This document shows, piece after piece, positions 2,336 to 33,066 of a DNA stretch of 35,364 nucleotides. This DNA is from a virus. Its lineage: Duplodnaviria > Caudoviricetes. Made by a program: the position numbers and the translations under genes. The notes beneath the pieces were generated by a model. It was not told the origin of the DNA, made no database searches, and saw only the letters and a list, made by a program, of their open reading frames with translations. Each line of letters begins with the position of its first letter. The first letter of the stretch is position 1. The stretch covers positions 1 to 35,364 of IMG/VR virus record IMGVR_UViG_3300044983_000134; one strand, 5' to 3'.

Positions 2336-3120
2336 AGCAGCAGCAATTAACCGATGAGGCGCGACGAGCGGTTGACAGACTCCGCGACTTCGCCAGAGAG
2401 CACGGCATGTCGCATCATCAGCGAGATCCACTCGTGATGGACATTCACCGTGCGCTCGATGCGTTCGACTCGGCAGCGCGTGCGGCCTCTCTCCCCCAGG
2501 CCGAGCCGCGGACCCCCGAGATTGAGATACTGCTGCGAAAGGAATGGTGGTTCAACCACGCCTGCGAAAAGCCGAACCTCTACGGCGACGACGGGGAGAT
2601 GCAGTGCAACGTCTACCACGGCGTCGAAGGCTGCATGTCCTTCATCGACTTCAAGCGGATGCCGTTTGACGACCTTCACCGCGTCGTCGGCACACTCCGC
2701 ATGATCAGGACCGCGAAAGCTGTTGAGCAGCACCTTCGGGCCGAGCCGCCGACCGACCTGCGGACGCTGATTGAGACGCTGAAACGATATTCAGCCGCAG
2801 AGATCGCGCATGGTTCTCGGCTGACTGGCTTGTCCGTCGAGCCGTTCTGGATTCGTGCGGACGAACTTGAGGCGGCGGTGCGCGGAGCCGCGAGGCCGCA
2901 GACGGATGTTGTGAAGGCTCTAGCCGATAGCGCCAGCGTTGGGTATCTCGTTGATGGCGAGGTGGATCGCGTCGGCGTGCTACACATGACGCTCAACGTG
3001 ATCTTTCGCCGCGCCGGAGTCATCATGCCCGCGTGCGATGGCCCTGACTGCAAAGTCTGCCCGCAACTTGTGGGGGTGGCCGCGCTCCCGTCCTCCCCGA
3101 CGACAAAAGGTGAGAAGTGA
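2332..3120 (+). CDS. Mosaic hypothetical accessory protein (262 aa)
   Basis: AAGGAG SD, ATGA and GTGA couplings on both sides. Confidence 0.75.
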   Translation: MKQQQLTDEARRAVDRLRDFAREHGMSHHQRDPLVMDIHRALDAFDSAARAASLPQAEPRTPEIEILLRKEWWFNHACEKPNLYGDDGEMQCNVYHGVEGCMSFIDFKRMPFDDLHRVVGTLRMIRTAKAVEQHLRAEPPTDLRTLIETLKRYSAAEIAHGSRLTGLSVEPFWIRADELEAAVRGAARPQTDVVKALADSASVGYLVDGEVDRVGVLHMTLNVIFRRAGVIMPACDGPDCKVCPQLVGVAALPSSPTTKGEK

Positions 3121-3974
3121 CTACAAACGAAGACATCAAGGCGAATATCGACCGATGGACCATCCTGCGCGTGCCTGCCGGATCGAACCTGCACGGGCTG
3201 CATCTTCCCGGCAAGGATGACCGCGACGAAACAGGCGTGTGTATCGAGCCTATGGATGCTGCGGTTGGCTTCTCGGAGTTCGAGCAATACATCTATCGCA
3301 CGGCAACAGAGCGCACGGGCAAGAACGACGCGCCATCGCAACCCGGCGATCTGGACCTGACGATCTACGGACTGCGGAAGTTTCTCCGGCTGGCGATGCA
3401 GGGCAACCCGCAACTGATTCAGATGTTGTTCGTGCCGCCGGAGTTGAGCGTGTCGCGCACGTCGCTCGGCAGCGATCTGCAACGGCTCGCCCCGCTGATC
3501 ATCAGTCGGCAGGCAGGGAAGCGATACCTTGGCTATCTCGAAGCGCAGCGTCAGCGTCTTCTCGGTGAACGCGGTCAGAAGAAAGTCAATCGTCCCGAGC
3601 TCGAAGAACGGCACGGCTTCGACACGAAGTATGCGATGCACATCCTGCGGCTCGGCTTTCAGGGTGTCGAGTTAATGAGCACGGGCAAGTTGACGCTGCC
3701 GATGCCCGAGAAGGATCGCGCCTTCGTCTACGCCACCCGATTGGGCGAAGTGCCGATTCAAGATGCGCTCACGAAAGCTGGAGAATTGGAACGGCAGATC
3801 AAGGACATGCTGCACGACGCGCCTATTCCAGAAGAACCGGCCCGCGAAGAAATCGAAGCATGGATGATCGATCGCTACTTCGAGATGTGGAAGTCGCAGC
3901 GCGTGCAACTTGAGCTTCACGATCCATCGCGGTCTATCGTTCTTGCCGGGGACACGGGGAAGGCGCAGCCGTAG
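3117..3974 (+). CDS. Pol-beta superfamily nucleotidyltransferase, RlaP/YcgL-like
   Basis: GSNLHGL...DDRDETGV (GS...DxD catalytic motif), LRKFLRLAMQGNP and FDTKYAMHILRL motifs typical of this family. Confidence 0.85.
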   Translation: MTTNEDIKANIDRWTILRVPAGSNLHGLHLPGKDDRDETGVCIEPMDAAVGFSEFEQYIYRTATERTGKNDAPSQPGDLDLTIYGLRKFLRLAMQGNPQLIQMLFVPPELSVSRTSLGSDLQRLAPLIISRQAGKRYLGYLEAQRQRLLGERGQKKVNRPELEERHGFDTKYAMHILRLGFQGVELMSTGKLTLPMPEKDRAFVYATRLGEVPIQDALTKAGELERQIKDMLHDAPIPEEPAREEIEAWMIDRYFEMWKSQRVQLELHDPSRSIVLAGDTGKAQP

Positions 3975-9125: not shown

Positions 9126-9589
9126 CAGACCATCGCTCCCGCGTAAGTGCGCGACGGCGGCACATCCGCGACGGGTTGTGGAGCGGCCCCGACGATCTGC
9201 GCGCCCTTCGCCTGCGCCTGCGCGATGATCGGGTCGCCTTCCGCGAACTGTTTCGTCGTGCCATCCGGCGCGCGCAGCGTGATGAGTTTGCCCGTGCTCG
9301 GGCCGGTCGGCGTCTGGAATTGCGCGGGCGGCCGCAGCGCGGCGAGATACGGCGACGCGCCGAGGAGTTTCGAGGCCGCCTGCGTCGCCGTGCTGCCGGC
9401 GTCCACGTAGGGCTTGAGGCGACCGCTCACGTCGGCATACTGCTGCTTCGTGAAGTCCAGCGCCTGCTGCGTCGACTGCGCCTGCTGCGCCGAGGCTTCC
9501 TTGATGGCGTCGGCTTGCTTCTTCGCGCCGAGGTAGTTGAAGACGCCCCCGATGCCGCCGCCGATCAGATCTATGGGGCTAACGGGCAC
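9125..9589 (-). CDS. DNA transfer protein, gp7-like N-terminal half
   Basis: GGAGG SD + GTG; Gly-rich hydrophobic start, then KKQADA...QQY...LKPYVDAG..A typical of gp7-like N-termini. Confidence 0.7.
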   Translation of the reverse strand: MPVSPIDLIGGGIGGVFNYLGAKKQADAIKEASAQQAQSTQQALDFTKQQYADVSGRLKPYVDAGSTATQAASKLLGASPYLAALRPPAQFQTPTGPSTGKLITLRAPDGTTKQFAEGDPIIAQAQAKGAQIVGAAPQPVADVPPSRTYAGAMV

Positions 9590-9974
9590 AAGCTACCTCC
9601 GTCGTAAACAAGCCCTTCACGCGCAGCCGCGGCGCGCGGATCGCCCACGCGTGCAAGCGCGGTGTCGTCGGATACACCGACGCGCGCCGCGCGCCGAGCG
9701 TGCCGAGGACGCGACGAATCCGCCGCCAGAGCCGCAGCGCGACGCGTCCCGTGCGGAACGCCGGATGCACCCAGACGCCATCGATATGCGCGTGGCGGTC
9801 AGGCGTCTGAAACACGACGGCGACCCCGACGATCTGCGAGCCGAGTTCTTCCACGAGCACCGATCCGCGTTCTGCATCGGTGGCCCGCACGGCGCACGCA
9901 CCCGTCTCACGTAAGCGCGGCCATTCCTCCGGCGGCAACACGCGCGAGACTAGGCCGACGCCGTGATCAACCAT
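9579..9974 (-). CDS. GNAT-fold acetyltransferase-like virion assembly protein (P22 gp14 position)
   Basis: IVGVAVV...HIDGVWVHPAFRTGRVALRL acetyl-CoA-binding motif A; exact start uncertain. Confidence 0.7.
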   Translation of the reverse strand: MVDHGVGLVSRVLPPEEWPRLRETGACAVRATDAERGSVLVEELGSQIVGVAVVFQTPDRHAHIDGVWVHPAFRTGRVALRLWRRIRRVLGTLGARRASVYPTTPRLHAWAIRAPRLRVKGLFTTEVACAR

Positions 9975-10388: not shown

Positions 10389-10514
10389 CTAAGATGCCTC
10401 CGCTGTCACGGCTGCGGCTCGTTGCGGGAGGCATACCCGCGCAAAGGCGAGCGACGCATCATGCCGGTTCGGCTGTGTGGTCCCGAGCAGGGCAGCAATC
10501 GGGATGCTCCGCAT
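10389..10514 (-). CDS. Possible 41-aa coupled mini-ORF
   Basis: TGATG coupling to the tail hub stop; exactly fills the gap to the needle gene. Confidence 0.35.
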   Translation of the reverse strand: MRSIPIAALLGTTQPNRHDASLAFARVCLPQRAAAVTAEAS

Positions 10515-11989
10515 CAATACTGCCCCGTCCCCGCCTGCGCCCGCAGATACAGCCCCGGCCCGAACGCGCGCTTCACGGGGTCGCTGCCGCTGATCCGCGC
10601 GACGAGCTTGTTCGCCATCGCCTGCCCGCACCGCGTCCACACGGCGCGGTCGTTGTAATCCGACTGGGCGCCGTAGGTCGTGTCGATCGGCGGTCCGAAG
10701 GTGCGCGCGCCGTCATCGGAGAGCGTCAGCCACATCGTCGGGTCGCTGCCCTGACCGGACGGCAATCCGACGCCTGCTTCGACGCCGAGTTCGATCTGGT
10801 CCATGACGAGGATCTGGTTCTCCGCGCTGAGATACGGCGCGGTGCGCTCCCATGGCAGCGGCTCGTCGTTCTCCGTGTAGGTGTCGAGGTCGAGCGCGTA
10901 GAGGTTCCCCGTCTGGTAGTCGCCGCAGAGCAGCACGCCGTCGGCGTTACAGAGGCCGCGCGCGCGCCAGCGCGTCTTCGTCGCCGAGGCGCCGATCCAC
11001 GAGAAGCGCCGATGCCATGCGCTCTCTGTGTCGTCGTAACACCACGTCCAACCGTGCGCCGTGAGGTTCGGCACGGTCAGCGCGCACATCGTGTGCCCCT
11101 GCTGCTCGTAGGCCAGCATCTCGGCCGTGAGGAGCGTGTCCGCTTGGGCGAGCGAGTAATCGATCGCGGGCGTCGAGACTTTCTGCGGATTCGGCGTCGT
11201 CGCCTTCACGACGCGCGCATGGCCTTGATTGTCCTGCGACAGCCACATCACCGTCTCGCCCACGACCGTAATCGCCCACGGCGAGGTCGCGCCTTCCTGC
11301 ATGACAGTCGAGGGATACGGCTGGAAGGGGTTATCCGTGTCGCCCGTGTCGTAGTAGACGACGCTCGTTTGCGTCTGGAACACCCAGAGCCGATCCGCGA
11401 GGACTTCAATGCCGACGACGTTCGTCGACTGCAGCGACACGGCGAAGAAATCGAGCGCGTTCCACGACGTGCCGTCCTCGAGCGCCGAAAACCAGACGCG
11501 CAACGTGTTCTTCTCCGTGAGGAGAAAATAGCCGTCCATGTAGCGCACGACTTGCGGCACGTTCGTCAGCGGCAGCGCGATCGTCGCGCTCAGGACCATC
11601 GTGAGGAGATTCAGAATCTTCAGTTCGCCTCCGGTCACGATCGCGAGCTGCTGGCCGCCCTGCCCGTTGCTCGCCATTGAGACGGGCGAGAGGTCGTTGG
11701 CGACCGTCCCGACGCGATACAGCGCCGGCACGCTCAGATCGACGCGATAGACGCCCGCGCCGATGACGGCAATCGTTAGGCCGTCCTGCGAGAACGTGCC
11801 GCGGCAGACGATTTCGCCGTCGGGCGTGCTGATGATCTTGCGCAACCCAGGCGTGCCGAGCAGCATCTGCCGCTTCGCGTTCTTGGTTTCCTCGATGGTT
11901 TCGAGAAACAGGTTCTCGCACGTCTCCGCCGCCATGACAGGCGAGTGCGCGAGATACGCGGGGCCGATGAAGTTGGGCCAGAGGGCCAT
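10514..11989 (-). CDS. Tail hub / packaged-DNA stabilization protein (P22 gp10-like)
   Basis: Motifs ENLFLE..LLGTPGL, VSMASNG, YMDGYF, YEQQGH, TWCYD..WH, GDYQTGNLY, LSDDGARTFG..GAQSDY..RAVW. Confidence 0.9.
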   Translation of the reverse strand: MALWPNFIGPAYLAHSPVMAAETCENLFLETIEETKNAKRQMLLGTPGLRKIISTPDGEIVCRGTFSQDGLTIAVIGAGVYRVDLSVPALYRVGTVANDLSPVSMASNGQGGQQLAIVTGGELKILNLLTMVLSATIALPLTNVPQVVRYMDGYFLLTEKNTLRVWFSALEDGTSWNALDFFAVSLQSTNVVGIEVLADRLWVFQTQTSVVYYDTGDTDNPFQPYPSTVMQEGATSPWAITVVGETVMWLSQDNQGHARVVKATTPNPQKVSTPAIDYSLAQADTLLTAEMLAYEQQGHTMCALTVPNLTAHGWTWCYDDTESAWHRRFSWIGASATKTRWRARGLCNADGVLLCGDYQTGNLYALDLDTYTENDEPLPWERTAPYLSAENQILVMDQIELGVEAGVGLPSGQGSDPTMWLTLSDDGARTFGPPIDTTYGAQSDYNDRAVWTRCGQAMANKLVARISGSDPVKRAFGPGLYLRAQAGTGQY

Positions 11990-13141
11990 TTAGTTCGTGA
12001 TGTAGCTGCCGGTGATGCGAATCTGATCCGTGCCGCTAAAATTCGTATTGTCGAGCGCGGCCACGGAACCAGTCGCCACCATAAAGAGCTGCAACGTGGT
12101 CGCATTCGGGAGGACGAGTCCGATAGGAAGCTGCGTGACCGTCACGGCCATCCCATTCGGATAGACCGCAAACGTCGGCGCGACGTTTGCCACATTTGCC
12201 GCAGCGACAGGCAAGCCGGTAATCGTGGCCGCGCCAGTCGAAGAGCCCTTCGAGGAGAGCACGATGTTGATGGTGAACGTCACGACGTTACCGTTGACCA
12301 CATACCGCCCGACTTGCAGTGTGTAGGTGATGCCGGTCGTGCCGCCCCCGAACGCGACGGCGGGGGTAAACGACGTGCCGTTGCCAAGGGCCGAGGCCGC
12401 ACAGGTCGGATCAACGCTCGCGCTGCTCCATGTCAGGACGCAGTTGGTGCCGCCGGGAATCGCTGTCGGCGCGCTCGTGCCGTTCCCGACGTAGACGTTA
12501 TGGGCCGCGAGGGTCGCCAGCCCCCAGCCTCCTTGCGTGACCGGCAACGCCGAGGCCAGATGCGTTGCCGTGACCTGGTAGGAGGTATTGATATCGACGC
12601 CAGTTGACGCGATGGACGTGTCCTTATAGGCGCTTGTGACCGTCGTGCACGTGGGGACGCCACTCGTCGAGACGGCCGTGACGACTTGATTCGTGCAGGT
12701 GCCACCTGTGACGCCGCCCCCGTTGCCAGCTCCGCCGCCGCGCGCCGACCAGCCGCGCGTCACCGTGACCGTGGCCGTGCCGCTCGAGCGCGTCGTGAAA
12801 TCCACGCAGACCGACAGGAACCCCGGATTGCTCAGGCCGAAGTTGCCGTTCGCCGTCGTGGTCGTGACGGGCGTGGTGCCGGAGGCGAGGTTCGTGACCT
12901 GCACGGCCACCCACGTCGATCCGTCCGTCGTGCCGTAGAACGTCAGCGTGCCGGACCATGTGCCGGTGATGCCGAAACTGACACTCGCCGCGTTGCCGAC
13001 GTTCACCGCGATGAACGCGTTCGTCGTGCTGCACGCCGATGAGGATTGCGCACTGAGGGTGGTCGGTTGGCCGATGACCTGCGCGCGCGCCGTCGCCGTG
13101 AGGCTAAGCGCGAGGAGCAGAGCGTAGAGCACACGTCGCAT
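11990..13141 (-). CDS. Tail fibre/spike-like protein with N-terminal signal peptide (383 aa)
   Basis: AGGAG SD + ATG 13141; MRRVLYALLLALSLTATARA|Q; LPVTQGGWG fibre motif; C-terminal GRYVVNGNVVT..ITGLPVAA..IRITGSY tail-fibre-type domain. Confidence 0.8.
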   Translation of the reverse strand: MRRVLYALLLALSLTATARAQVIGQPTTLSAQSSSACSTTNAFIAVNVGNAASVSFGITGTWSGTLTFYGTTDGSTWVAVQVTNLASGTTPVTTTTANGNFGLSNPGFLSVCVDFTTRSSGTATVTVTRGWSARGGGAGNGGGVTGGTCTNQVVTAVSTSGVPTCTTVTSAYKDTSIASTGVDINTSYQVTATHLASALPVTQGGWGLATLAAHNVYVGNGTSAPTAIPGGTNCVLTWSSASVDPTCAASALGNGTSFTPAVAFGGGTTGITYTLQVGRYVVNGNVVTFTINIVLSSKGSSTGAATITGLPVAAANVANVAPTFAVYPNGMAVTVTQLPIGLVLPNATTLQLFMVATGSVAALDNTNFSGTDQIRITGSYITN

Positions 13142-13149
13142 GAAAACTC

Positions 13150-13905
13150 CTATTTGATTTGTCCCGTAGGCCAGAAGAAATCCGGCCGGTGATGCTGCCC
13201 GCCCGGCATCCCGCCATCGCGCGTGACGAGCGTCGGGACCATGATGTTGTTGCCGAAGAACTGCGCCCGCGCTTCGCGCGCGAGCTTCTCGACCTGGGGC
13301 GGCACCGCGCGCCCGAAGCTGCTGCACAGCGCCTCGACGAGCGTCAGCCGGAACGCGCGCTGGCCGCCTGGCGGCAGGTCGATCGTGTCGTTCTCCGTGA
13401 CCTGCGCGTAAAGCGTGCGCGAGACGAGGACGATGTCATACGCCGTCGTCGGCGCCGGGAACATGAACAGCTTCCCGTTGGGCCAGTCCGGCTGGTAGTA
13501 GATGTCGGTGACGATGCTGCTCGTGATCGTATTCGCGTAGTTCTGATTCGCCGTCGAGTTCGCCAGCCACCACTGGTAGTCGCGGATGTTAATAGGATTC
13601 TTGACGGCCGGCGTGACGTTGGTGATGAGGAGCGATGCGCCATCGAGCGACACGGGCCGCACGGCGAGCGTGAAATTCGCCCCCGTCGGCCCGATGGTGT
13701 GCGGCTGGGTGCCGGGGATCAGCGTGAACGTGCTGAAGACCTGCGCCCAGACCGTCTCCCGCTTCGCGTTCCAGAAATCGCGGAGCTCGTTGAGAATCGA
13801 GAGACACCACACGCCGTCGCGCGCCGTGGGGCTCCGCCCCGGCAGGAGCACGTTGAGCTCGTTCAACGCCCCAGAGATGTAATCCGCGACGGAAATGGCG
13901 GCCAT
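13150..13905 (-). CDS. Head-to-tail adaptor (P22 gp4-like position)
   Basis: DYISGALNELNVL..G.SPT..D...L..LN...D.W; IYYQPDWPNGKLFMFPAP; IDLPPG motifs. Confidence 0.8.
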   Translation of the reverse strand: MAAISVADYISGALNELNVLLPGRSPTARDGVWCLSILNELRDFWNAKRETVWAQVFSTFTLIPGTQPHTIGPTGANFTLAVRPVSLDGASLLITNVTPAVKNPINIRDYQWWLANSTANQNYANTITSSIVTDIYYQPDWPNGKLFMFPAPTTAYDIVLVSRTLYAQVTENDTIDLPPGGQRAFRLTLVEALCSSFGRAVPPQVEKLAREARAQFFGNNIMVPTLVTRDGGMPGGQHHRPDFFWPTGQIK

Positions 13906-13908
13906 CGG

Positions 13909-14247
13909 CTACCGGCGCTTCCCCTTCGGCGCACCGCTGTCATCGGTCGCGTCGGCGTCGGCCTCCGGCAGCGCCTCGTCTTCCGGCAGCGTCTCGTTCT
14001 GCGTGCGGTGCGGCTTGCCGTGCGTCGCGGCGCTCTCGGCCTCGAGCGGCGTCTTGAACCAGCCCGCCTTCAGCCACTGCGCCTGCTCCTTCTCGTTCTC
14101 CACGCGCTTGTGCGCGAACGTGCCCTGCGCGCCGTCCACGCCCGGCGTGAACTTGTGCACCATCGCGGGCCACGCCACGTAGACGCGGTTCGCCTGCACG
14201 ACCTTGTTGATATCCGTGTCCGGCTCTTTCGGGGTCACTGTCGCCAT
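13909..14247 (-). CDS. Small head-operon protein (112 aa)
   Basis: GAGGAG SD; WPAMVHK...VENEKEQAQWLKAGW followed by an acidic/basic tail. Confidence 0.7.
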   Translation of the reverse strand: MATVTPKEPDTDINKVVQANRVYVAWPAMVHKFTPGVDGAQGTFAHKRVENEKEQAQWLKAGWFKTPLEAESAATHGKPHRTQNETLPEDEALPEADADATDDSGAPKGKRR

Positions 14248-14277
14248 TGGTCAGTCTCCTCAGATAGCTAATTTAAA

Positions 14278-14293
14278 TGGTATACTTAAGCTA
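14278..14293 (+). promoter_or_regulatory. Extended -10 promoter (TGgTATACT), probable leaderless HNH transcript
   Basis: TG 14278-79, TATACT 14281-86, ATG 14293 six nt later, no SD. Confidence 0.65.
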
Positions 14294-14811
14294 TGGCAGC
14301 CCCGCCGAACAAGCTGAACTGCATCGGTATGCGCTTTGGACGTCTCGTTGTATTGAGCGATGCGCCAAGGCACACAAGTAATCATAACCGCAGAGTTAAT
14401 TGTCGATGCGATTGCGGCGCTGAGAAATCTGTATATCTCGGGGCTCTTCGATCTGGCCAGACCGTTTCGTGTGGGTGTTTTCACATGGAACGATTGATCG
14501 CTGATAACACCACGCACGGACATGCAAGAAGCAGCGAATACAGAAGTTATAACGCAGCTAAGACTCGCTGTTCTAATCCTCGGCAGCCCGGATGGAAAAA
14601 CTACGGAGGCCGCGGTATTTCGATGTGCCAGCGTTGGCAAGATTCTTTCCAGAATTTCTTGGACGACATGGGACCGAAGCCCAATCCATCGTATTCCATT
14701 GACCGCATCGACAATGACGGACCTTACGATCCGTCGAATTGCCGATGGGCGTCGAGAAGTCAGCAGGCTAAAAATCAACGCCGCCGTCCTCGGAAAAAGT
14801 CACCCACTTAG
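14293..14811 (+). CDS. Free-standing HNH homing endonuclease
   Basis: [46 protein letters not shown]; lower GC; antisense to the operon. Confidence 0.92.
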
Positions 14812-15751
14812 CTACGCCAAGACTCAAAAAAACAGTGGGCAACATCAAGTGGTGGAAATGCGGGGCTTCGCTGAGCGGCACGAGCAGCCGCGGCAGCCAC
14901 GCGAGCAGCACGCCGCCGACGACCAGCGCCGTCCAACGCGGCGCGCGCGCCAGTCCGATCCCGACGAGCGACGACAGGAGCACGAGCGGTCCCCACGACG
15001 TTGTCTCCGGGTCGATGCTCAGCCGCCACGGCGGTGTCAGCAGCAGCCCCGCGAGGTCGCGCAGGCCCGTCAGGACCGGCGGTGCGGTCAACGTCCCGAC
15101 GTGCGCGGCGAGGCCCACGAGGACACCGCCGAGCGCCGTCAGGCACCAGACGAGCAGCCAGCCGAGCGGCCACGGTTCGTCGATCCACCACGCCCACGCG
15201 GGCAGGAGGAGCCATGCGGCGACGCCGGATTCCTTCGCGGCGACCGCGGCCACGGCCGCGAGCCACGCCCAGCCGAACCGGCCGCGCTCGATTGCCAGCG
15301 CGCCCCAGAGCACGGCGAGCGTCATGAGAACATCCGCCCGCGCCGCGGCGTAGGCGACCGCCTCGACCTGCCACGGGGCGAGGAGAAACAGCGCCGCCGC
15401 GAGCACCGCGCCCCGCGGCGCGATCACGGTCAGCCCGAGCGCGTAGACCAGCGCGCCGGCGGCGAGGTGCAGCGCCAGCGACGCGGCATGCTGCCGGACT
15501 GGCGAGAAGCCCACGCTCCGGTCCACGAGGCGCGTCAGCGCGCGCGCGGGACGGACGGCGGCGTCATGGAGCTCGATGCGCCAGCCCTGCCACGCGCGAT
15601 AGGTCGTGTTGAGGTCGTTCAGGTCTTCGTAGACGAACGCCGCGGAGCGCACATGCGGCGCGTAGAGGCACGCCGTCACAGCGAGGCACACCACGAGGCC
15701 CACGGCGGGACCGTGCAGAGATCGGAAGAGGGGGACGTGGCGAGTATCCAT
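14768..15751 (-). CDS. Multi-pass GT-C glycosyltransferase, TMTC-like (membrane part)
   Basis: Ordered TMTC-like motifs: Y....[60 protein letters not shown]; many TM helices; start uncertain (ATG 15751 or a downstream GTG). Confidence 0.78.
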
Positions 15752-16020
15752 CGGAGATGCTGTCGGACCAACGACGTAACGATCGCCGCGTCGGCCGGAT
15801 GCCGCAGCGCCCGCGAGAGCGCCTCGATATCCCACGCGATCGCGGTGTCCACGTCGCCCTCCACGAGCGCGACGCGGGCACGGTTAACGGCGGCGCGCGG
15901 CGTGTCGGTCACGCGCACGGCCGCCTTCCAGAGAGTGCGGTCGGACGACCACATCGGCAGCGTCTGCGTGGTCGCCCACACACACGCACCGACGAGGATC
16001 AGCCCGACCGCCGATCGCAT
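15676..16020 (-). CDS. TM + TPR-like protein corresponding to the C-terminal part of TMTC-like enzymes (114 aa)
   Basis: TGATG coupling; TM helix, then TTQTLPMWSSDRTLWKAAVRVTDTPRAAVNRARVALVEGDVDTAI..EAL, matching 'T..RN..W.d..tLW..a....P..RA..NlG' plus TPR. Confidence 0.72.
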   Translation of the reverse strand: MRSAVGLILVGACVWATTQTLPMWSSDRTLWKAAVRVTDTPRAAVNRARVALVEGDVDTAIAWDIEALSRALRHPADAAIVTSLVRQHLRWILATSPSSDLCTVPPWASWCASL

Positions 16021-16547
16021 CAGTTCAGGTTCTTCAACAGCGAGTTGTAAGTCCCGAGCTGGTTGTTCGTCCACGTCCACTGCGCCGACGTGTTCGGCGC
16101 CGCGGTGCCGAACGCGCGACAGAGATACACGTTGCCGGTCAGGATGTCGATGAGCGGCAGATACGCGTAGTCCGTCACCGTGCAGCGCCCGAACAGCTTC
16201 CGGCCAAGGCCATCGGTGGCCCCGACCTGGAACATCGTCACCGGCCCCCAAAAAATCACCGAGGACGCGGCGTGCAGTTCCGGCGGCGTGGACGCGACGC
16301 AGCGCGAGGCGACGACGGTCGTGGACGACGGCACGCTGTTCACGTTGAACAGCTCCGAGTCCATGTAGAACTGCATACCCGCCGCCCAGCCGGACGTAGA
16401 TCCGACCGTCAGCGTGCGGTTGGTGCAGTTCCGATCAGTGATCGCGGTCGTCAGCGTCGTGGTCGTGTTGTAGGTCTGCGCTGAGGCAGACCCCGTGAGG
16501 GCCATCAGGACGGCGATGGCGATGAGCGAGCGCATCAGTGTGTTCAT
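16020..16547 (-). CDS. Signal-peptide-bearing Thr-rich beta protein, candidate capsid decoration protein (175 aa)
   Basis: AAGGAG SD favours ATG 16547; MNTLMRSLIAIAVLMALTGSASA|Q; TTLTTAI..LTVGSTSG..DSELFNV..SR...H beta-domain pattern; immediately after the coat gene. Confidence 0.7.
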   Translation of the reverse strand: MNTLMRSLIAIAVLMALTGSASAQTYNTTTTLTTAITDRNCTNRTLTVGSTSGWAAGMQFYMDSELFNVNSVPSSTTVVASRCVASTPPELHAASSVIFWGPVTMFQVGATDGLGRKLFGRCTVTDYAYLPLIDILTGNVYLCRAFGTAAPNTSAQWTWTNNQLGTYNSLLKNLN

Positions 16548-16560
16548 GGTCATCTCCTTC

Positions 16561-17967
16561 CTACGCGCACAGGACGCGCACGCTGGAGTTCTCGGCGTAG
16601 CCGACGCCGAACCCCATGAGCACGTCGAAGCGGTTGGTCATGCGTGAGAGGTTCTGGTCCCACGCGCGGACGAAGCGGACGGCGATGCCGGTTTCCGGAT
16701 CGCGCGTCTGCGAGCTGAGTTCGACGGCCTTCGGCATCTCGAGCTTGACGCCGACCATCATGAACGCGTCGCGCTGCAGGGCGAGTCCCTGAATGCCCGA
16801 CTTCGGCCCCGTGGAGGGCGTGGTCGTGCCCGCGAAGAGCGTCACGAGCGAGGTCGTCACTGGCAGGGCATCGACGTTCTGATACTGGCTGCCCGGTCCG
16901 AAGATCGCCGGGTAGATCGGCACCGTGACCGTCGAGGCGGTCGCCGTCACGTTGTCCGTGATCGTGAACTGCTTCGTGGTCGCCGTGGTCGTGCGTCGGC
17001 GCGTGACCGGGTTGACCGCGTAGACCGACGCGATGCTGATCACGTCGCCCTTATTGAACGTGTCGCCAGAGGTGCAGTTCAGGAGCAGCGTAGATCCGGA
17101 CTGGCCGGAGCCGCTGATCGTGACCGAGCTCGGCGTCTGCCACACGCCCGCCGTGTGCGAGTAGAGCGACATCGACTCATACCAATCGAAGCCGCTGTTC
17201 GTGCCGATGGACCCCTCGCGATACTGCCGCGAAATGTCCGACGCCGGGTTGAAATACTGAATCGCGGCGTTGACGAGCGACGTGTTCACCGAGGGCGGGA
17301 TGATCATGCCCTTCGGACCGCCGCGCATCCAGCCGGCGAGCTCCACCATCCGCTGCCGCGCCTGGTTGATGGTCTGGAACGACGTCGGGTCCGTGCCGAG
17401 CACGCCGACGATGTTCGGGGTGTTCTGGTAGGCGAACAGCGCGAAGCGGGAGTCGATCTCCTGCGCGAGCTGCACCATCGCCGGTTCCAGATACTGCGCC
17501 CGCACGCGCTCGCGGCCGCGTTCCATTTTCAGCGCGGCCTCGGCGGAATCCCAGCCGAAGTCGATGCCGAAAATCTGATCGCAGCTGATCGTCGTGTAGA
17601 TGCGGTTGATCGGCTGTTCCTGATACTGGAGGCCGTCGCGCACGGTCCAGCGCTGCGGCAGCGGCACGCGGATGGTCTGCCCGACCGCGAACTCCTGCTC
17701 GTAGTCCTCGTTGTGGTCCATGTTGGCGAACTGACCGCAGACGAGTTTGTTCTTCAGGATGCGGAGGCCTTCCATCGTCAGCCAGTCGACGTATTGGAAG
17801 GAGTTGGTCGCCAGCGCGACGCCAGAGGCGTGCGCTGTGTGCCACACCGCCAGCGCGACGAGCGCGAAGACGGCGAGCGAGACGGCTTTGGTCCAGAGCG
17901 GGCGAGCCGGGTCGAGAATGGACCCCTTCAGGCCACGCTGCAGACGCTGCAGAGCGGGTGTCGTCAT
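16561..17967 (-). CDS. Major capsid protein, P22 coat (gp5) family, with hydrophobic N-terminal extension
   Basis: EGLRILKNKL, VGQTIRVPLP, YLEPAMVQLAQEID, QYREGSIG..GFDWYES, GDVISIASVYAVNPVT, IYPAI..QYQNV, RFDVLMG motifs. Confidence 0.92.
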   Translation of the reverse strand: MTTPALQRLQRGLKGSILDPARPLWTKAVSLAVFALVALAVWHTAHASGVALATNSFQYVDWLTMEGLRILKNKLVCGQFANMDHNEDYEQEFAVGQTIRVPLPQRWTVRDGLQYQEQPINRIYTTISCDQIFGIDFGWDSAEAALKMERGRERVRAQYLEPAMVQLAQEIDSRFALFAYQNTPNIVGVLGTDPTSFQTINQARQRMVELAGWMRGGPKGMIIPPSVNTSLVNAAIQYFNPASDISRQYREGSIGTNSGFDWYESMSLYSHTAGVWQTPSSVTISGSGQSGSTLLLNCTSGDTFNKGDVISIASVYAVNPVTRRRTTTATTKQFTITDNVTATASTVTVPIYPAIFGPGSQYQNVDALPVTTSLVTLFAGTTTPSTGPKSGIQGLALQRDAFMMVGVKLEMPKAVELSSQTRDPETGIAVRFVRAWDQNLSRMTNRFDVLMGFGVGYAENSSVRVLCA

Positions 17968-17969
17968 GG

Positions 17970-18953
17970 TTACTTTCGGAGGCTGGCGGTCTCGCGGGCG
18001 TTCATAATCCGCGTGTAGCCAGCAAAGTCGCCGCGTGCGAGGGCCGCGTCGGCATCATCCGCACCGGCCGAGGTGCGCGTGTCGAGTCGCGGCGCCGGAG
18101 GCGGCGCATCGGTTGTGGTTTTGACAGGCGGCACGGCATCCTTTAGGGACACGCCGAGCAGCACCATCGCTTCGATCTGCTGGAGCGGCGAGAGCGCCGT
18201 AATGCGGGCGACCTCGTCGGGATGGTCGTAGAGGTGATACAGCGTCTTCGGCCCCATCTCCGACTCGAGAATCCAGAGGTCGGCCGCGCTGCCTGCGGGA
18301 ATCGCGATCGGCTGGCTGAACTTCTCGACGGCATCGGGATGATCGGCTTTGACGGCCTCGACCTTGCGCGTCCACTCGGTTTGGATGCGCTGGGTTTCCG
18401 ACTGCGCGTGCGCCTTCGCTGACTGCTCGGCCGACTGCTTATCGCGGTCGGCCAGCAACGCGCTGGCTTTCCACCCGGCGAGGTCTTCGACGTATTGCGG
18501 GTCGGAGGTGCCGAGCGGATATTTCGTGTAGTCGGTGCCGTCAGGCTTGGGGCCGATCTCCACGGCTGCAGGTGGCGGGGCTGCTTGGGTCGCCGGGGGC
18601 CGTGGGGCGGTTTCGGCGCGGAGTTCGGCGCGCTTTTTCAGGAGCCCGTCGATTTCCGCTTGGAGTTCCGCTTTGCGCGTCTCTGCGCCTTTCCCTTTGG
18701 CCGGTTCCGAGGCGGCCGGTGGTGTCGCGTCCGTTGACGCGGCCTGCGCGGCAGGCTCGGCGGGGGACGAGTCCGCAGCGAACGTCGGCTTGATCGCGTC
18801 GGGCATCTCGCCGGTCGCCTCATACGAGGCGCGGTCAGCGGCGCTCATCGAACGCAAGATATCGGTCGGGGACGTGAGGACCGGCGCAGCGGCCACAGGG
18901 GGCGCGGCAACGGCTGGAGGAGTCGCAACGGGCGGAGCAGCGGCGTCGGCCAT
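17970..18953 (-). CDS. Capsid scaffolding protein
   Basis: Between portal and coat; Pro/Ala-rich N-terminus, YVEDLAGWK, ESEMGPKTLYHL..HPDEVARI..LSP, APPP and C-terminal DFAGY helix. Confidence 0.85.
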   Translation of the reverse strand: MADAAAPPVATPPAVAAPPVAAAPVLTSPTDILRSMSAADRASYEATGEMPDAIKPTFAADSSPAEPAAQAASTDATPPAASEPAKGKGAETRKAELQAEIDGLLKKRAELRAETAPRPPATQAAPPPAAVEIGPKPDGTDYTKYPLGTSDPQYVEDLAGWKASALLADRDKQSAEQSAKAHAQSETQRIQTEWTRKVEAVKADHPDAVEKFSQPIAIPAGSAADLWILESEMGPKTLYHLYDHPDEVARITALSPLQQIEAMVLLGVSLKDAVPPVKTTTDAPPPAPRLDTRTSAGADDADAALARGDFAGYTRIMNARETASLRK

Positions 18954-19144
18954 CGAGGTCTCGCAGCGCGTCCGTCCACGCGTCGTCGGTTTGATGCAAC
19001 GGCCAACGAAAAACGCCCGGCAGGTGTTCAGGGCTGAGACTGAACAAATGCGCGGGCGTCTTCCGCGGCCGTCTTTGTCCTACACACAGGCGGTGACGAG
19101 CCGCCGTTCGGTAATGAGCCTAGTGTGTTGGAAAAATGTGTCTA
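18954..19144 (-). promoter_or_regulatory. Structured leader of the scaffold gene with possible promoter
   Basis: Long interrupted hairpin 18999-19072 (ACGGCC/GGCCGT, GACGCCCG/CGGGCGTT, TGTTCAG/CTGAACA); TAGACA-N16-TAGGCT upstream. Confidence 0.5.
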
Positions 19145-19369
19145 CTACATCTGGTGGTCGGTAGTGTCGCGCATCGGCGCGGCGGTGTCAACTGGCGCGA
19201 CCTCCAAGCGCGGAAGTTGCGCCAGGAAGGTCTCCGCCAGCGTTCGAATCAGCGTCTCGGCTTGCGCTGGCGTGAGATGGCGATACAGCGCAGGATCGCA
19301 CGTCAGCCGATGCCGGTCGTCGGCCTCGTCGCGGAGCGCGATATGGAACTGCAGCGAATAGCGCGTCAC
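19145..19369 (-). CDS. Hypothetical protein (74 aa)
   Basis: GGAGG in the portal 3' end precedes the GTG. Confidence 0.6.
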   Translation of the reverse strand: MTRYSLQFHIALRDEADDRHRLTCDPALYRHLTPAQAETLIRTLAETFLAQLPRLEVAPVDTAAPMRDTTDHQM

Positions 19370-19371
19370 GC

Positions 19372-21696
19372 CTACACCTCCGGCTCTGGCGCTGGCTGCA
19401 ACTCCGCCTGCCGCTCGGTCTGCGCCGCCTCGTGCGCGTGTCCCATCGCCTGCAACGCCGCCTCGTGCGCGTGCGACAGCCGCGTCATCTCCGCCTCGTG
19501 CGCGAGCGCGATGATCTCCAGCGCGTGCTCGTTCATCTGGTCGCCGCGTTCCTTCGCGGCCGTGATGAACGCGACGCGGATCGAGGTCGCATCCTTCATC
19601 GCCTGTAGTGTGATGGCCTTCTGCGCGTCCATCGCGGCGAGCCGCTGATCCGATTGCGCCTTAGCCTGCGTCTGCGCGGTCTTCGCTTCGATTTCCTGCG
19701 ACGCGTGCTGGAGCAGCCCGTGTGCCTCGTCGAGTTGCTTCTTGAGCTGCGCGTTCTCCGCCTGCATCTGCTGCGGGTCGGGGCCTTTGCCCTCCTGCTC
19801 CGCCTTCGCCGCGCGCAGTTCCGGTGGCCACAGCGTCTCGAGGTCTTTCGCGAGGTCGTCGGCAATCGGCCCCGCGTCGAGCAGTTTTATGGCGGTCGGC
19901 GCGGCAATGCGCGCGATGGCTTGGTCGCCGGACTTCAGGAGCGTCATCGCGAGGTCGTTCGCCTGCTCGCGCTCGCTGTCGAAGTTCGGGCCGGTGCCGA
20001 TCGTGACCGCGTGCTGGTGCTGCGGGTCGAGTGCAATGGACTCCGGGTCGGTCGGGTCGTTCACGCGCACGGCCTTGACCATCCCGCGTGCGTCGCGCGT
20101 CGTGATGTCCTTCGCGGTGTCGTCGTAGTAGGGCAGGAGGTCGTCAAGGATGCAGCCGACGTGCCGGATCATGTCGTCGTAGTGGTCGATGAAGTGATAG
20201 CTGCCGGCGTCCGACTGCGCATCGAGTTGTTTCAGCGCCACGCCGGACTTCACGTTCGTATCGGCGCGTCCGACGCTGGCCGAGTAGCGCCCGAGCGCGT
20301 TCTGGATGTCGCGCTTGTAGCCTTCGGCCACGATCTCGTAGCCGCCCATGCTCGACATGTCGGGCAACTCACGCCGCGGCAGCGGCAGCACGGTCGTCGA
20401 GCCTGACTCCTCCGCGAAGGGCTTCGCGAGCACGACCGCGACGGGCGTATGGAGCGACTGCTGAATCAACGCGAGTTGCGCGGCGTCGAGTTGGCCCTCA
20501 TACGCCATATACGGCGTGCGCGGCTGCATCGCGGCGACTTCCATCTGCGTCGACTTCGTCCAGTTGTAGGCTTTCTGCCCGTCGCGCGCGAGGCGGATGT
20601 AGGACAGGATGACTTTCTTCCCGCCCACGCCCGCGTCGTTCATGTAGAGGATCTTGCCGTAGGCCGCTGCAAACGGGATGAACTTGCCCTTCCAGACGTG
20701 CTTCTTCGGCGCGTCCGTCTTCGCGAGCAGTTCGACGCCGTTCGTGAGATACATGCAGACTTCGGGCACGTCGCGCGTCCACGTGTCGAGCACCTTGCCG
20801 GATGGACGCGGAGCCTTATCGACACCCTCGATCCAGACCACGGCCGGTTTCGGCGGCAGCGCCTGTCCCGTGAGGCGCGCTTTCGTCTGCTCGATGAGCG
20901 AGTAGCTTGGCTGAATCTGATAGCACTGGCGCGCGACGGGGCGGCAGGTCCAGTATTCCGCGATCTGGAGCCGGTCCTGCTGAATCCACCGCGGCGACAT
21001 CGCCTGCAAATCGAGGCCGAAATCCTGCACCACGGCATCGGGGTAGTCGCGCTTGAATTCGGCTTTCGTGATGGACTTCGTGTAGAACAGAAACTTCCAG
21101 TCCGCACCGGCCGTCGACTCGGCGTCCGGGTCCGGCAGCACCTGGTCAGGATTCGGAATCGGGCGAATGCGCAGCGCCTGGTTGCGCGAGCGCGGCGACT
21201 CGTAGTCGGCGGTGACGCGGACGTAGCCGAACGAACGCTGGGCTTCGTTCTCGAACGCCGTCGTGTAGGCTTCCTGCGCGTGCGAGAGGTATTCGATCTG
21301 GCGGATGCGGTTGCCGCGCAGTTCCGCCGTCTGGTCGTTCGCGCCGTTGCCTTCCGGCGTGACCTTGATCGCGCGCTTGTTCTGGCGCACGGTATTGACG
21401 AGCTGGTTGATGTATTGCTGGAGCTGGTCGAGCGAGAGGATGGGACGCCCGACGCGCGCCTGCCGATCTTCCGCGCTCCACGCATCGCCCGCGACGTAGC
21501 GCATGTCCTCGTCGGCGTCTTGGCGGATCGTCTGCCACTGCTCGTAGGCGTAGTCGAAATCGCGATGCAGTTGCGCGAGGATGGCGCGGTCGGTGGCGGG
21601 CACGCCGGCTCGTGTCGCGACGCCATCGCTGTCGTAATCGGTGCGCTTGGCGAGTTGGCGCACGGGCGTCGGCGCGTTGTTCTTGGTGTCGGCCAT
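19372..21696 (-). CDS. Portal protein, P22-like
   Basis: 774 aa; EDMRYVAGDAW..R..RPILS, QNKRAIKV.P, SFGYVRV, IAEYW, KFIPF, ARDGQKAYN, SGVAL, GPNFDSERE and a coiled-coil C-terminus. Confidence 0.93.
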   Translation of the reverse strand: MADTKNNAPTPVRQLAKRTDYDSDGVATRAGVPATDRAILAQLHRDFDYAYEQWQTIRQDADEDMRYVAGDAWSAEDRQARVGRPILSLDQLQQYINQLVNTVRQNKRAIKVTPEGNGANDQTAELRGNRIRQIEYLSHAQEAYTTAFENEAQRSFGYVRVTADYESPRSRNQALRIRPIPNPDQVLPDPDAESTAGADWKFLFYTKSITKAEFKRDYPDAVVQDFGLDLQAMSPRWIQQDRLQIAEYWTCRPVARQCYQIQPSYSLIEQTKARLTGQALPPKPAVVWIEGVDKAPRPSGKVLDTWTRDVPEVCMYLTNGVELLAKTDAPKKHVWKGKFIPFAAAYGKILYMNDAGVGGKKVILSYIRLARDGQKAYNWTKSTQMEVAAMQPRTPYMAYEGQLDAAQLALIQQSLHTPVAVVLAKPFAEESGSTTVLPLPRRELPDMSSMGGYEIVAEGYKRDIQNALGRYSASVGRADTNVKSGVALKQLDAQSDAGSYHFIDHYDDMIRHVGCILDDLLPYYDDTAKDITTRDARGMVKAVRVNDPTDPESIALDPQHQHAVTIGTGPNFDSEREQANDLAMTLLKSGDQAIARIAAPTAIKLLDAGPIADDLAKDLETLWPPELRAAKAEQEGKGPDPQQMQAENAQLKKQLDEAHGLLQHASQEIEAKTAQTQAKAQSDQRLAAMDAQKAITLQAMKDATSIRVAFITAAKERGDQMNEHALEIIALAHEAEMTRLSHAHEAALQAMGHAHEAAQTERQAELQPAPEPEV

Positions 21697-21699
21697 GCG

Positions 21700-22065
21700 C
21701 TACGACTTCACCAGCCGAAATCCCTTATCGCGTCCCGTCGCCTGCCGCGTAACCGGATCGATTTCGCCGGCGCGCATGACGAGGTCCGGCGCATCCGTCA
21801 GCTCCACGCGCGGAACGACGACGACATGCCGCACGAGTCGCACGCTCTCCCCGCGCTCGGGAATCGGCGGTAGGATGGAGCCGAGGTCGCGCAGGCTGTT
21901 CATGGAGTCGCGGCGATACCACGGCTCGACTTCGATGGTGCCGTCCAGTTTCAGCACGGCGAGGCCGTTATGGAGCGTGGTGCCCGCGAGGCCGTGCGTG
22001 CGGCAGAGGCAGAGCGGTTGCTCGATGGTGAAGAGAGGCGCGGCACAGACCGAGCACGGCATCAC
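21700..22065 (-). CDS. Hypothetical protein with N-terminal Zn-finger-like CxxC..CxxH
   Basis: GTGA coupling; CSVC...CRTH. Confidence 0.6.
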   Translation of the reverse strand: MMPCSVCAAPLFTIEQPLCLCRTHGLAGTTLHNGLAVLKLDGTIEVEPWYRRDSMNSLRDLGSILPPIPERGESVRLVRHVVVVPRVELTDAPDLVMRAGEIDPVTRQATGRDKGFRLVKS

Positions 22066-22265
22066 CGTCGCCCCGACTTCCGCACATGCGGCACCACGCG
22101 TCGCCGCTGCTGGGTCAGCGCGCGCACATCCGCCTCATTGAGCGCTTCGATGTCTCGATGCGTCGCCGCGCGCCCGTGCGCCGACGTCGCGCCGCAGTCG
22201 CCACAGACCGACACCGCCCCGCGGACACACGCCGGCGCACAGCCGCAGCGATGGCACGCGCTCAT
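22062..22265 (-). CDS. Small Cys-rich hypothetical protein
   Basis: ATGA coupling at 22265; CHRC...CGDC. Confidence 0.55.
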   Translation of the reverse strand: MSACHRCGCAPACVRGAVSVCGDCGATSAHGRAATHRDIEALNEADVRALTQQRRRVVPHVRKSGRR

Positions 22266-22366
22266 GCCGTGTCCTGCCACGCGCCGGCCATCGCCCACGC
22301 ACGCCGGCGCGAGTAGAAACAGGCGCGGAACGAGAGATACAGTTCCACGCGCCGCCAGCCCGTCAT
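22262..22366 (-). CDS. 34-aa mini-ORF (MTGWRRVELYLSF...)
   Basis: ATGA overlaps at both ends. Confidence 0.5.
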   Translation of the reverse strand: MTGWRRVELYLSFRACFYSRRRAWAMAGAWQDTA

Positions 22367-22485
22367 TCGCGGTCCTCGGAATCCACCATCTCGCGCGACG
22401 CCCAGCCCGCCCAAACCATGAGCACCATCACGAGGCCCGCGAACGCGACGCAGCCGTAGGCGAACGCCGTCAGTTGCGGGCTCAT
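22363..22485 (-). CDS. 40-aa single-TM mini-protein (MSPQLTAFAYGCVAFAGLVMVLMVWAGW...)
   Basis: ATGA overlaps at both ends; one hydrophobic helix; below the ORF-track cutoff. Confidence 0.55.
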   Translation of the reverse strand: MSPQLTAFAYGCVAFAGLVMVLMVWAGWASREMVDSEDRE

Positions 22486-22712
22486 CGGCGCCGCCGATCA
22501 CGGTTGGAGTAGGCGTGGCTCTCGGTCGTTGCGCGGAGGGACTCGCGCTGCTTGCGGGCGGCGGCGGTTTTGTGCTCCGGCACGTGCCGCTGCTCGCTGA
22601 TCGCGATGGCGACGGCTTGCTTGCGGTTCTTCACCACGGGGCCATGCGTCGAGCCGCTGTGCAGCTGGCCAGCGCCGTATTCTTGCATCACGCCACGAAC
22701 GGATTTAGGCAT
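22482..22712 (-). CDS. DUF6496-like small basic protein
   Basis: VMQEYGAGQLHSGS..GPVVKNRKQAVAIAISE motif; GGAG SD. Confidence 0.75.
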   Translation of the reverse strand: MPKSVRGVMQEYGAGQLHSGSTHGPVVKNRKQAVAIAISEQRHVPEHKTAAARKQRESLRATTESHAYSNRDRRRR

Positions 22713-31445: not shown

Positions 31446-31814
31446 ATGTGGACCTATCGCCAGTCGGACGGCGTGCTCCTGCATAACGGCGCGGTCATTG
31501 CCACTGGCTATTCCGGCTACGGCGCGCGCGCGAATCAGCCTGCGGACGAGACCATCAAAGACCTCGGCCCGATTCCACGCGGCACCTACGCCATCGCGCC
31601 GCCCGAAGATGTCGACGGCGGTCCGCACGGGCCGTTTGTCCTGCCGCTCGTGCCGCACGAGGAAAACGAAATGTATGGCCGCAGCGGGTTTCTGATGCAC
31701 GGCGACAACGCGGAAGGCAACCACACGGCATCGATGGGTTGTATCATCATGCCGCGCGCGACGCGCGTGCTTGTGGCGCAGAGCGGCGATGGTGCGCTGG
31801 AGGTGGTCGCGTGA
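31446..31814 (+). CDS. Tlde1/DUF2778 L,D-transpeptidase-fold peptidoglycan enzyme, candidate endolysin
   Basis: WTYRQS.G, GYSG.G, GPIPRGTY.I, GRSGFLMHGD....ASMGCII (His...Cys catalytic motif). Confidence 0.85.
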   Translation: MWTYRQSDGVLLHNGAVIATGYSGYGARANQPADETIKDLGPIPRGTYAIAPPEDVDGGPHGPFVLPLVPHEENEMYGRSGFLMHGDNAEGNHTASMGCIIMPRATRVLVAQSGDGALEVVA

Positions 31815-32629: not shown

Positions 32630-32958
32630 TGGAAACGCGACGACACGGCTCCCGCGTCGATGCGCTGCTGTATCTCTGGCGCGGGTTCCTCGACTCGCTC
32701 GCCACCGACGGCGGCTACATCTTCGTGCTGTTCACGCTCGTGCTCATCGGCATCCGCGTGTATGCGGGTCTGGACGCGACGGCGGGCGGCCAGATCATCA
32801 CGCTGTCATTCGGTGCGCTCATCGCGCTACTCAAGCCGAAAGGCAGCAACCGCGAGCAGATGGGGAGCACGACGACCGTCGCCGCGACGACGACCACGAC
32901 AGAGCCGCCGCCCGCGTTCCCCCCGCCGCCGGTTGCGCCCGATCCGCCGCTGACATAG
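32629..32958 (+). CDS. Two-TM holin-like protein with Thr/Pro tail
   Basis: GGAGG SD, TGATG coupling; GGYIFVLFTLVLIGI and IITLSFGALIALL helices. Confidence 0.6.
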   Translation: METRRHGSRVDALLYLWRGFLDSLATDGGYIFVLFTLVLIGIRVYAGLDATAGGQIITLSFGALIALLKPKGSNREQMGSTTTVAATTTTTEPPPAFPPPPVAPDPPLT

Positions 32959-32968
32959 ACTACCCGAC

Positions 32969-33063: not shown

Positions 33064-33066
33064 ACA

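Follow-up and report, generated by a model that had tools for sequence, protein, structure and literature searches.

A possible route of export and periplasmic glycosylation for a decoration-like protein of P22-like podophages

To our knowledge, tailed-phage particles are regarded as assemblies of cytoplasmic proteins only, which are either unglycosylated or glycosylated in the cytoplasm. The decoration proteins and tailspikes of lambda, T4 and P22 bind to finished heads late in assembly. The virion glycosyltransferases of mycobacteriophages are soluble and act in the cytoplasm on major capsid or tail proteins. In the gtrABC serotype conversion of P22, SfV and their relatives, a phage membrane enzyme of the glycosyltransferase C (GT-C) type uses a lipid-linked sugar at the periplasmic face. 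Here we describe a different arrangement in the IMG/VR virus record IMGVR_UViG_3300044983_000134 (35,364 bases, estimated completeness 85%; this whole stretch is called the window). Behind the coat gene lies a gene for a decoration-like protein with a predicted signal peptide, and behind this a two-gene cassette encoding a tetratricopeptide repeat (TPR) protein with a transmembrane (TM) helix and a membrane protein with GT-C fold. The minus strand of the window carries a P22-like morphogenesis operon (terminase, portal, scaffold, coat, adaptor, hub and ejection-type genes), and the phage is a P22-like podophage.

For mycobacteriophage Che8 and its relatives, virion glycosylation by phage glycosyltransferases has been described and a glycan coat of the particle proposed (Freeman et al., 2023, as cited in PMC11256854). 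The cassette likewise specifies phage-encoded enzymes, but of the membrane GT-C type, whose predicted site of action is the periplasm and whose predicted substrate is an accessory protein that is exported. With gtrABC it shares the GT-C-type enzyme; it differs by its site in the head operon instead of at the attachment site, by the TPR half and by the linked exported protein. GtrB and GtrA partners were not found either: GT2 genes (PF00535) occur in none of 11 cassette-bearing records, six of which are fragments, and GtrA genes (PF04138) in none of five. Since no such donor-making genes were found, the cassette is not a gtrABC system and its sugar donor would be that of the host. The earlier note on this DNA had set the system apart from soluble capsid glycosylation and from gtrABC, and the ten-helix membrane enzyme and the missing GT2 and GtrA genes agree with it. 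A soluble GT2 gene was seen in another record (G002, 15303-15782; locus L013; such numbers are our handles), from a phage with an exported decoration protein and without GT-C.

The closest relatives are TMTC1-4 and their full-length bacterial homologues, which resemble the phage pair in combining a GT-C module with TPRs, in a motif set M1-M7 that can be recognised in order, though in part in altered form, and in the extracytoplasmic position of the motif loops; the TMTC motifs (PMC7801869, Table 4) include M2 SHKSYRP, M5 DW, M6 PxxP and M7 ERxxY. TMTC1-4, which O-mannosylate beta-strands of the cadherin type, are single chains of 11 helices followed by a TPR array, whereas in the phages the protein is split between two genes whose order is reversed and its TPR part is shortened to 90-170 aa; it has ED for DD, M2 reduced to one Arg, and M7 as E-H-H-x-Y in the phage family. 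Each known system with which the cassette was compared has a defining feature that the cassette lacks. In the literature we found neither the cassette nor exported decoration proteins described, though Data 4 of PMC10367356 may list comparable proteins; export followed by periplasmic glycosylation of a decoration was found described for no tailed phage. The central genes of the window are the following.

16561..17967, minus strand: P22-like coat, 468 aa, with a 52-residue N-terminal extension (PF11651, E 7.5e-17, residues 53-454; phrog_283, E 1e-49)
16020..16547, minus strand: decoration-like protein, predicted to be exported, 175 aa, starting at the second ATG, after GGAG (signal peptide, virion-type beta-barrel, second small domain)
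16479..16547, minus strand: its predicted Sec signal peptide, 23 aa, ending ASA↓Q (sequence; heuristic)
15676..16020, minus strand: TM-TPR protein, 114 aa, corresponding to the last membrane helix and first TPR of a TMTC-like protein (hhalign; TPR_16, E 0.02; alignment)
14768..15751, minus strand: GT-C membrane protein, 327 aa, 10 predicted membrane helices (model, structural matches, motifs)

A TGATG at 16018-16022 couples the decoration-like gene to the TM-TPR gene, which overlaps the GT-C gene by 76 nt. The gene order and positions given for 11990..17967 in the earlier note and the TGATG coupling were both found as described; the HNH gene lies on the plus strand and all others on the minus strand. 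No sigma-70 promoter was found in 11500-22500 of the window.

The GT-C protein gave an AlphaFold model with a predicted local distance difference test score (pLDDT) of 93.7. When it was compared by VIA-align with 48,161 chains, the top 20 matches all had the GT-C fold (Z 18.3-8.8), and the first unrelated row followed at Z 6.2. The best match was Pmt4 (Z 18.3, root-mean-square deviation (rmsd) 4.3, 284 residues aligned), followed by Pmt1-2, OST and ArnT. The assignment as GT-C enzyme had been made beforehand from the letters, and the fold, the TMTC-like motifs and the predicted topology bear it out. Other searches yielded less. Foldseek of the model against pdb returned nothing at E<=0.001, and a PDB sequence search with the GT-C profiles gave no relevant match. 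In Pfam, PHROGs and NCBIfam neither the GT-C nor the fibre protein of the window has a match, and the decoration-like protein matches only phrog_9851 (E 4e-4). An Atlas search with homologue P0179 gave viral clusters only, all under 0.9. In BFVD there was one match at E 5.9e-4, a Nitrosopumilus spindle-shaped virus protein. Two Nitrosopumilus spindle-shaped virus proteins (A0A514K300 and A0A514K2W1) resemble the GT-C model with TM-scores of 0.60 and 0.56, which suggests that archaeal viruses have GT-C-fold proteins too.

The phage GT-C family comprises 93 clusters at E<=1e-30; 150 members of 284-412 aa were aligned, of which 17 match PMT_2. The window protein contains E42-D43 (the acidic pair expected of GT-C enzymes in the outward-facing loop that follows the first helix), R70, R138-x-D140, K173-E174 and P287-R288, and in the 150 members E42 is conserved in 141, D43 in 148, R138 in 137, D/E140 in 149, K173 in 149, E174 in 140 and R288 in 149. 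Thus, M1 is ED in 141 of the 150 and the strict DD of TMTC in at most 7; M3 (RxD) and M4 (KE) are present as R-x-D/E and KE; of M2 only the Arg is left (142/150), and M6 is PR. In the M5 region the family consensus is IDHDW, a D(H)DW loop, versus IDPET in the window, and M7 is EHHxY in the family versus FHHxM in the window. With the N-in topology of TMTC the cytoplasmic loops carry a net positive charge, whereas that of the motif loops is negative or close to zero; the active site is therefore predicted to face the periplasm. An inward-flipped GT-C was rejected because of the loop charge and the intact first helix. In five close GT-C pairs, all from a single clade, dN/dS is 0.07-0.08. We consider with good confidence that the GT-C protein is an active enzyme.

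Together, the two cassette genes correspond to one bacterial TMTC-like protein that has been cut in two, with the C-terminal half encoded first. In profile alignments to one bacterial protein the GT-C family covers residues 6-324 and the TM-TPR family residues 339-377 (hhalign 96.2% for TM-TPR against the full-length homologue P0016). The best 12 cellular homologues have both halves in a single frame and DD in 12/12. Full-length homologues were found in 254 of 401 sampled genomes from the phylum of an Acidobacteriota-titled genome, a tally that takes in one unpublished genome (G062). In a quick tree, in which long branches were flagged, 20 phage copies stand on one side of a branch with 99% SH-aLRT support and 14 cellular copies on the other. 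This separation and the intact cellular frames make it likely that a TMTC-like gene was captured and split once. As to the host, one decoration homologue carries the name Terriglobia; a search of the 401 sampled genomes that scored only 6 candidates in each found no decoration-bearing prophage. A motif scan of GTDB contigs gave 98 matches; among the 80 loci retrieved from these, one hit was true, a phage-like contig of 6.6 kb that was placed, probably wrongly, in a bin with a Mycobacterium title.

Signal peptides were scored with a heuristic of our own for hydrophobicity, charge and cleavage site, not with SignalP. It flags 5 of the 35 window genes, those for the fibre, the decoration-like protein, TM-TPR, GT-C (first helix) and the coat, the latter only with a 45-residue search window. 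Among related phages it flags 114 of the 120 listed decoration homologues versus none of 68 adaptor or hub genes. Decoration and fibre both have the basic, hydrophobic and AxA cleavage regions of substrates of Sec and signal peptidase I; the signals that the earlier note had seen on them are thus borne out, with 23 residues ending ASA↓Q and 20 residues ending ARA↓Q, respectively. The decoration-like protein is very probably exported.

The window's decoration-like protein has 4 Cys and 24% Ser/Thr (S/T). The signal peptide is followed by a beta-barrel (mature residues 1-80) and a second small domain (81-152) with Cys122/Cys143, which occur family-wide; Cys41/Cys83 are additional in the window's clade. 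The six best structural matches of the model (pLDDT 89.1), confined to residues 1-80, are all phage virion domains: JBD30 tip (Z 11.8), VP1 capsid (10.6), Chi tip (8.9), GP4 (8.8), Mystique (8.8) and crAss001 capsid (8.2). Overall, the barrel is like those of the JBD30 and Chi tail tips, VP1, the capsid insertion domains of crAss001 and P22 and the GP4 portal-tail chain (Z 7.5-11.8, rmsd 1.5-3.0); we know of none of these solved virion barrels that is exported. Similar barrels in cellular enzymes reach Z 6-7.6, and Foldseek of the model against pdb gave nothing at E<=0.001. By sequence, 8vjh and 8rk3 were matched, and 54 of 78 decoration members match PHROG tail or structural families. The features of capsid decorations that were tested, a coat-adjacent gene and a virion-type beta-barrel, are both present, and the protein probably attaches to the head.

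Leaderless homologues of the decoration occupy the identical slot behind the coat and begin at the mature N-terminus. The Cys122/Cys143 pair is present in 72 of 74 leader-bearing decorations versus 0 of 5 leaderless ones, which supports the conclusion that the Cys pair tracks the signal peptide. L174 and L195 are leaderless sisters of the leader-bearing L175, and L195 retains a different Cys pair common to it and its leader-bearing sister. Of the disulfides claimed in the earlier note, the tie between Cys pair and signal peptide stands, and formation of the bond itself is likely. The phages provide a natural control: the same capsid-adjacent protein exists in a leaderless, Cys-free form and in a leader-bearing, Cys-paired form, and some lineages add a membrane glycosyltransferase gene.

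The slot behind the coat is made up of modules. In the L174, L175 and L195 decorations the C-terminal domain resembles, by eye, a stand-alone leaderless gene of barrel-less phages (L003, L006, L008, L015, L017, L018), which is phrog_673 in 4 of 6 tested. In L035 (1899-3149) a frame that we take from its motif to be GIY-YIG-like continues in frame into the decoration gene, which keeps its own start and leader.

The GT-C cassette was found in 29 other viral records, in all of which (29/29) the TPR gene lies directly upstream of GT-C. In all 27 that reach far enough, a coat gene and a signal-peptide decoration gene lie upstream of the cassette, as the earlier note had led one to expect; the P22-like coats of cassette records are 28-88% identical to that of the window. 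To count lineages, 167 coats of at least 300 aa were collapsed at 90% identity to 97, three GT-C loci with short coats being left out and L029, L186 and L191 assigned to the leader class by eye. The 97 comprise 17 with GT-C, 57 with a leader-bearing decoration only, 18 without such a decoration and 5 with a leaderless one; 78 reach far enough downstream to be judged (17, 46, 13 and 2, respectively). This sample is biased by the GT-C and decoration queries. A signal-peptide decoration is present in 17/17 GT-C lineages, and GT-C in 0/15 informative lineages without such a decoration. Among 24 whole records without the cassette no GT-C gene was found elsewhere in the genome. On a coat tree of 81 rows GT-C requires at least 10 changes. 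With 46 exporting lineages lacking GT-C versus 17 having it, and GT-C occurring only with a signal-peptide decoration, export is a common trait of the phage family and the GT-C pair an optional add-on, never seen without export.

GT-C goes with a particular form of the decoration. The protein is short (159-186 aa) in 15 of 17 GT-C lineages, whereas in all 46 others it has at least 232 aa. Since the GT-C pair accompanies short decorations that lack the outer C-terminal domain, a glycan may replace that domain. By column enrichment, S169 (12/17 GT-C lineages versus 1/57), T47 (16/17 versus 23/57) and T25 (16/17 versus 25/57) are candidate acceptor sites, these counts being uncorrected for kinship. 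It is likely that the decoration is the acceptor of the GT-C enzyme.

We therefore have a reading to offer, whose steps would be as follows. The decoration-like protein would pass through Sec to the periplasm, where its leader would be cleaved and its disulfides would form. There the split TMTC-like GT-C pair would transfer to it a sugar from a lipid-linked donor of the host, and once complete it would attach to capsid heads when the cell lyses. The glycan may take the place of the lost outer C-terminal domain and form the side of the head that faces outward. For the sequence of export, disulfide bonding, glycosylation with a host lipid-linked sugar and binding at lysis the chances appear about even. 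More tentatively, and short of an even chance, Sec export, periplasmic oxidation, split TMTC-like glycosylation, addition at lysis and the glycan as outer face might together amount to a secretory-pathway step as in enveloped animal viruses, run by a large family of tailed phages with a captured enzyme, the short decoration being the first natural substrate of the bacterial TMTC-like family. If the mechanism holds, virions would mature and become glycosylated in a way that is new, and a minimal two-gene TMTC-like enzyme beside its likely substrate would offer a way to probe bacterial TMTC-like proteins and the cooperation of GT-C and TPR.

Addition at lysis presupposes that periplasm and cytoplasm meet. 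Lysis enzymes were found in 9 of 29 records, including the GT-C-positive G007 and G009 (the latter also with an integrase). Lysis enzymes in cassette-bearing records mean that the two compartments mix at release, and non-lytic release is less likely. Amidase_2 was found in 0 of 28 records. In the window, genes on the strand opposite to the structural operon (31446-32958) encode a protein with a Tlde1 domain, which is presumably a peptidoglycan hydrolase, a lipoprotein-like protein and a small membrane protein. Together with a further small gene this stretch (31446-33465, plus strand; PF10908, E 5e-15, for the Tlde1-domain gene; LAFTAGC box in the lipoprotein-like gene) is probably, judging from its gene content, a lysis module.

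Several observations weigh against the reading of export followed by glycosylation, and some of them fit a rival in which the exported protein joins the virion while the split GT-C acts on a target in the host envelope (to mask a receptor or to exclude superinfection), or has little or no enzyme activity and acts from the membrane as a chaperone that keeps the decoration in the periplasm until lysis. Most export occurs without GT-C, namely in 46 of 63 informative lineages and, in the subset sampled by coat (n=47: 4 GT-C, 29 leader-bearing decoration only, 13 none, 1 leaderless), in 29 versus 4. The association of GT-C with the leader has a Fisher p of 0.03 when kinship is ignored, and on the coat tree 7 independent pairs give a median p of 0.125. 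The link between short decoration and GT-C rests there on 6 independent pairs, 5.2 concordant and 0 opposite, with a median p of 0.06. GT-C and decoration do not co-diverge tightly (Mantel 0.19, p 0.07; partial 0.03 beyond coat). The first acidic residue of M1 is Glu throughout the phage family instead of the Asp of TMTC and of the 12 cellular homologues, and M7 is eroded in the window's clade, the Glu and Tyr of the family being replaced by F299 and M303 in the window's copy. Between the window and L002 dN/dS is 0.52 for GT-C and 0.20 for the coat. The S/T content of decorations is the same with and without GT-C (0.234 versus 0.236), and decorations with and without a GT-C cannot be told apart by their N-x-S/T sequon counts either. 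No cultured phage with the cassette genes was found in a set of 50,697 phage records. Two points of the earlier note are not supported as it gave them: S/T richness does not go with GT-C, and export is not bound up with glycosylation in a single system, given that 46 of 63 informative lineages have signal-peptide decorations without GT-C and the fibre signals vary independently (see below).

We nevertheless regard a GT-C protein with another target or role as unlikely. The GT-C pair has never been seen without a signal-peptide decoration directly upstream, to which it is joined in the window by the TGATG coupling, and it is tied to the loss of the C-terminal domain of the decoration. The acidic pair, R-x-D/E, KE and PR are nearly invariant in 150 diverse sequences. 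Receptor masking would, moreover, fit poorly with a position in the late operon.

A second rival is that the exported protein is glycosylated but remains periplasmic or surface-bound, as decoy or for exclusion or lysis timing, and never reaches the particle. A signal peptide normally keeps a protein apart from cytoplasmic assembly, a secreted protein of cellular origin has the barrel too, and an integrase was found in at least one phage with the cassette. Phage proteins following the Q rule were read as modifiers of the host outer membrane by Matrishin et al. (PMC10367356), which likewise counts against incorporation into the virion. We hold this host-envelope function to be quite unlikely. 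The best fold matches are virion proteins, leaderless, Cys-free homologues sit in the same slot behind the coat, the N-terminal domain of the fibre likewise occurs with and without leader, and the GT2 or GtrA partner is missing (0/11 and 0/5 cassette-bearing records). There is also a precedent. In Cellulophaga phage phi18:3, gp085-087 (GenBank KC821620) start with leaders of the Sec type, followed by Gln at +1, and tandem mass spectrometry (MS/MS) of particles is the basis of their annotation as structural proteins. They differ from the decoration in being large proteins of a Bacteroidota phage with 0-3 Cys and no capsid-adjacent barrel, and no GT-C was noted in the stretch examined. We found no literature discussing these leaders.

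Signal-like leaders are also found on other virion proteins of the window. The remaining genes of the operon segment and its flanks are:

19372..21696, minus strand: P22-like portal, leaderless (PF16510, E 7.1e-96)
17970..18953, minus strand: scaffolding protein, leaderless (phrog_8865, E 8.4e-22)
17812..17967, minus strand: coat leader, a basic stretch, about 15 hydrophobic residues, His, Gly-Val, then the mature A-x-N start
14293..14811, plus strand: HNH endonuclease (phrog_374, E 4.9e-61)
13909..14247, minus strand: small cytoplasmic protein of the post-coat slot (homologue in L002; without family match)
13150..13905, minus strand: head-tail adaptor, leaderless (phrog_637, E 2.3e-4; phrog_12985, E 1.1e-19)
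11990..13141, minus strand: fibre-like protein, 383 aa, with predicted Sec signal at residues 1-20 (13082-13141), ARA↓Q, 6 Cys and 27% S/T
10514..11989, minus strand: tail hub or head closure, leaderless (phrog_578, E 6.6e-88)

The N-terminal domain of the fibre has a leader in about ten loci and none in nine, GT-C-positive phages included (judged by eye). Since the leader varies with and without GT-C, export of the fibre is independent of GT-C. In the stretch from coat to hub, 4/11 GT-C, 5/35 decoration-only and 2/8 no-decoration loci have other genes with a leader. Further signal-peptide, Cys-bearing genes in structural slots were seen in L018 (10333-15063), L208 (4573-7300), L025 (11784-13326), L221 (12281-14191) and L073 (3792-6283); such genes also exist in phages that have neither GT-C nor an exported decoration.

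The coat, too, had been credited with a signal-like leader. A hydrophobic leader does exist, but it is a minority feature: of 96 coats, 88 can start at the mature N-terminus, having a start codon there, whereas the window coat has no ATG, GTG or TTG at this point. Six coats without a start codon at the mature end have such a leader, as do three with one. The leaders (similar ones in L181, L192, L196, L221, L272, L029 and L020/L022) often end in His...Gly-hydrophobic before A-x-N, contain no AxA↓Q site and show no tie to GT-C. Export of the coat as a family trait was rejected on these grounds. The coat leader is probably not an export signal and may be a membrane-tethering propeptide. A comparable optional hydrophobic leader was observed on another post-coat protein (L241, 5623-6174).

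These coats suggest a third rival, in which the leaders hold virion parts at the inner membrane face and a protease of the phage or the cytoplasm removes them, GT-C working on the cytoplasmic side or being irrelevant. Capsids must assemble in the cytoplasm, and yet some coats of the family carry a hydrophobic leader; capsid leaders cut by a prohead protease have been proposed in Porphyromonas phages (PMC10367356). We judge this very improbable, as the decoration and fibre leaders are textbook basic-hydrophobic-AxA↓Q sequences unlike those of the coats, the Cys pair tracks the leader, the charge distribution places the GT-C motif loops outside, and no protease gene was identified among the window proteins by Pfam and PHROG profile searches.

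The HNH gene overlaps the 3' end of the GT-C gene by 44 nt and has a GC content of 51% versus 72% in the GT-C gene. It is absent from between GT-C and the small gene in L002. HNH is a low-GC insertion outside the conserved cassette.

A pentapeptide-repeat gene (PF00805, E 5e-30) apparently spans both ends of the record (35074-35364 and 2-499, both plus strand). The assembly probably broke inside the repeat and, since both ends lie within this single gene, the record may be near a full circle and the genome nearly complete. Between the tail and ejection genes the window has a GNAT acetyltransferase gene (9579-9950, minus strand; PF00583, E 1e-8), which is also found in L015, L042 and L045. Finally, the window contains genes for an RtcB RNA ligase (27829-29202, minus strand; PF01139) and an RlaP-like nucleotidyltransferase (3117-3974, plus strand; PF10127), which possibly form an RNA-repair counter-defence pair.

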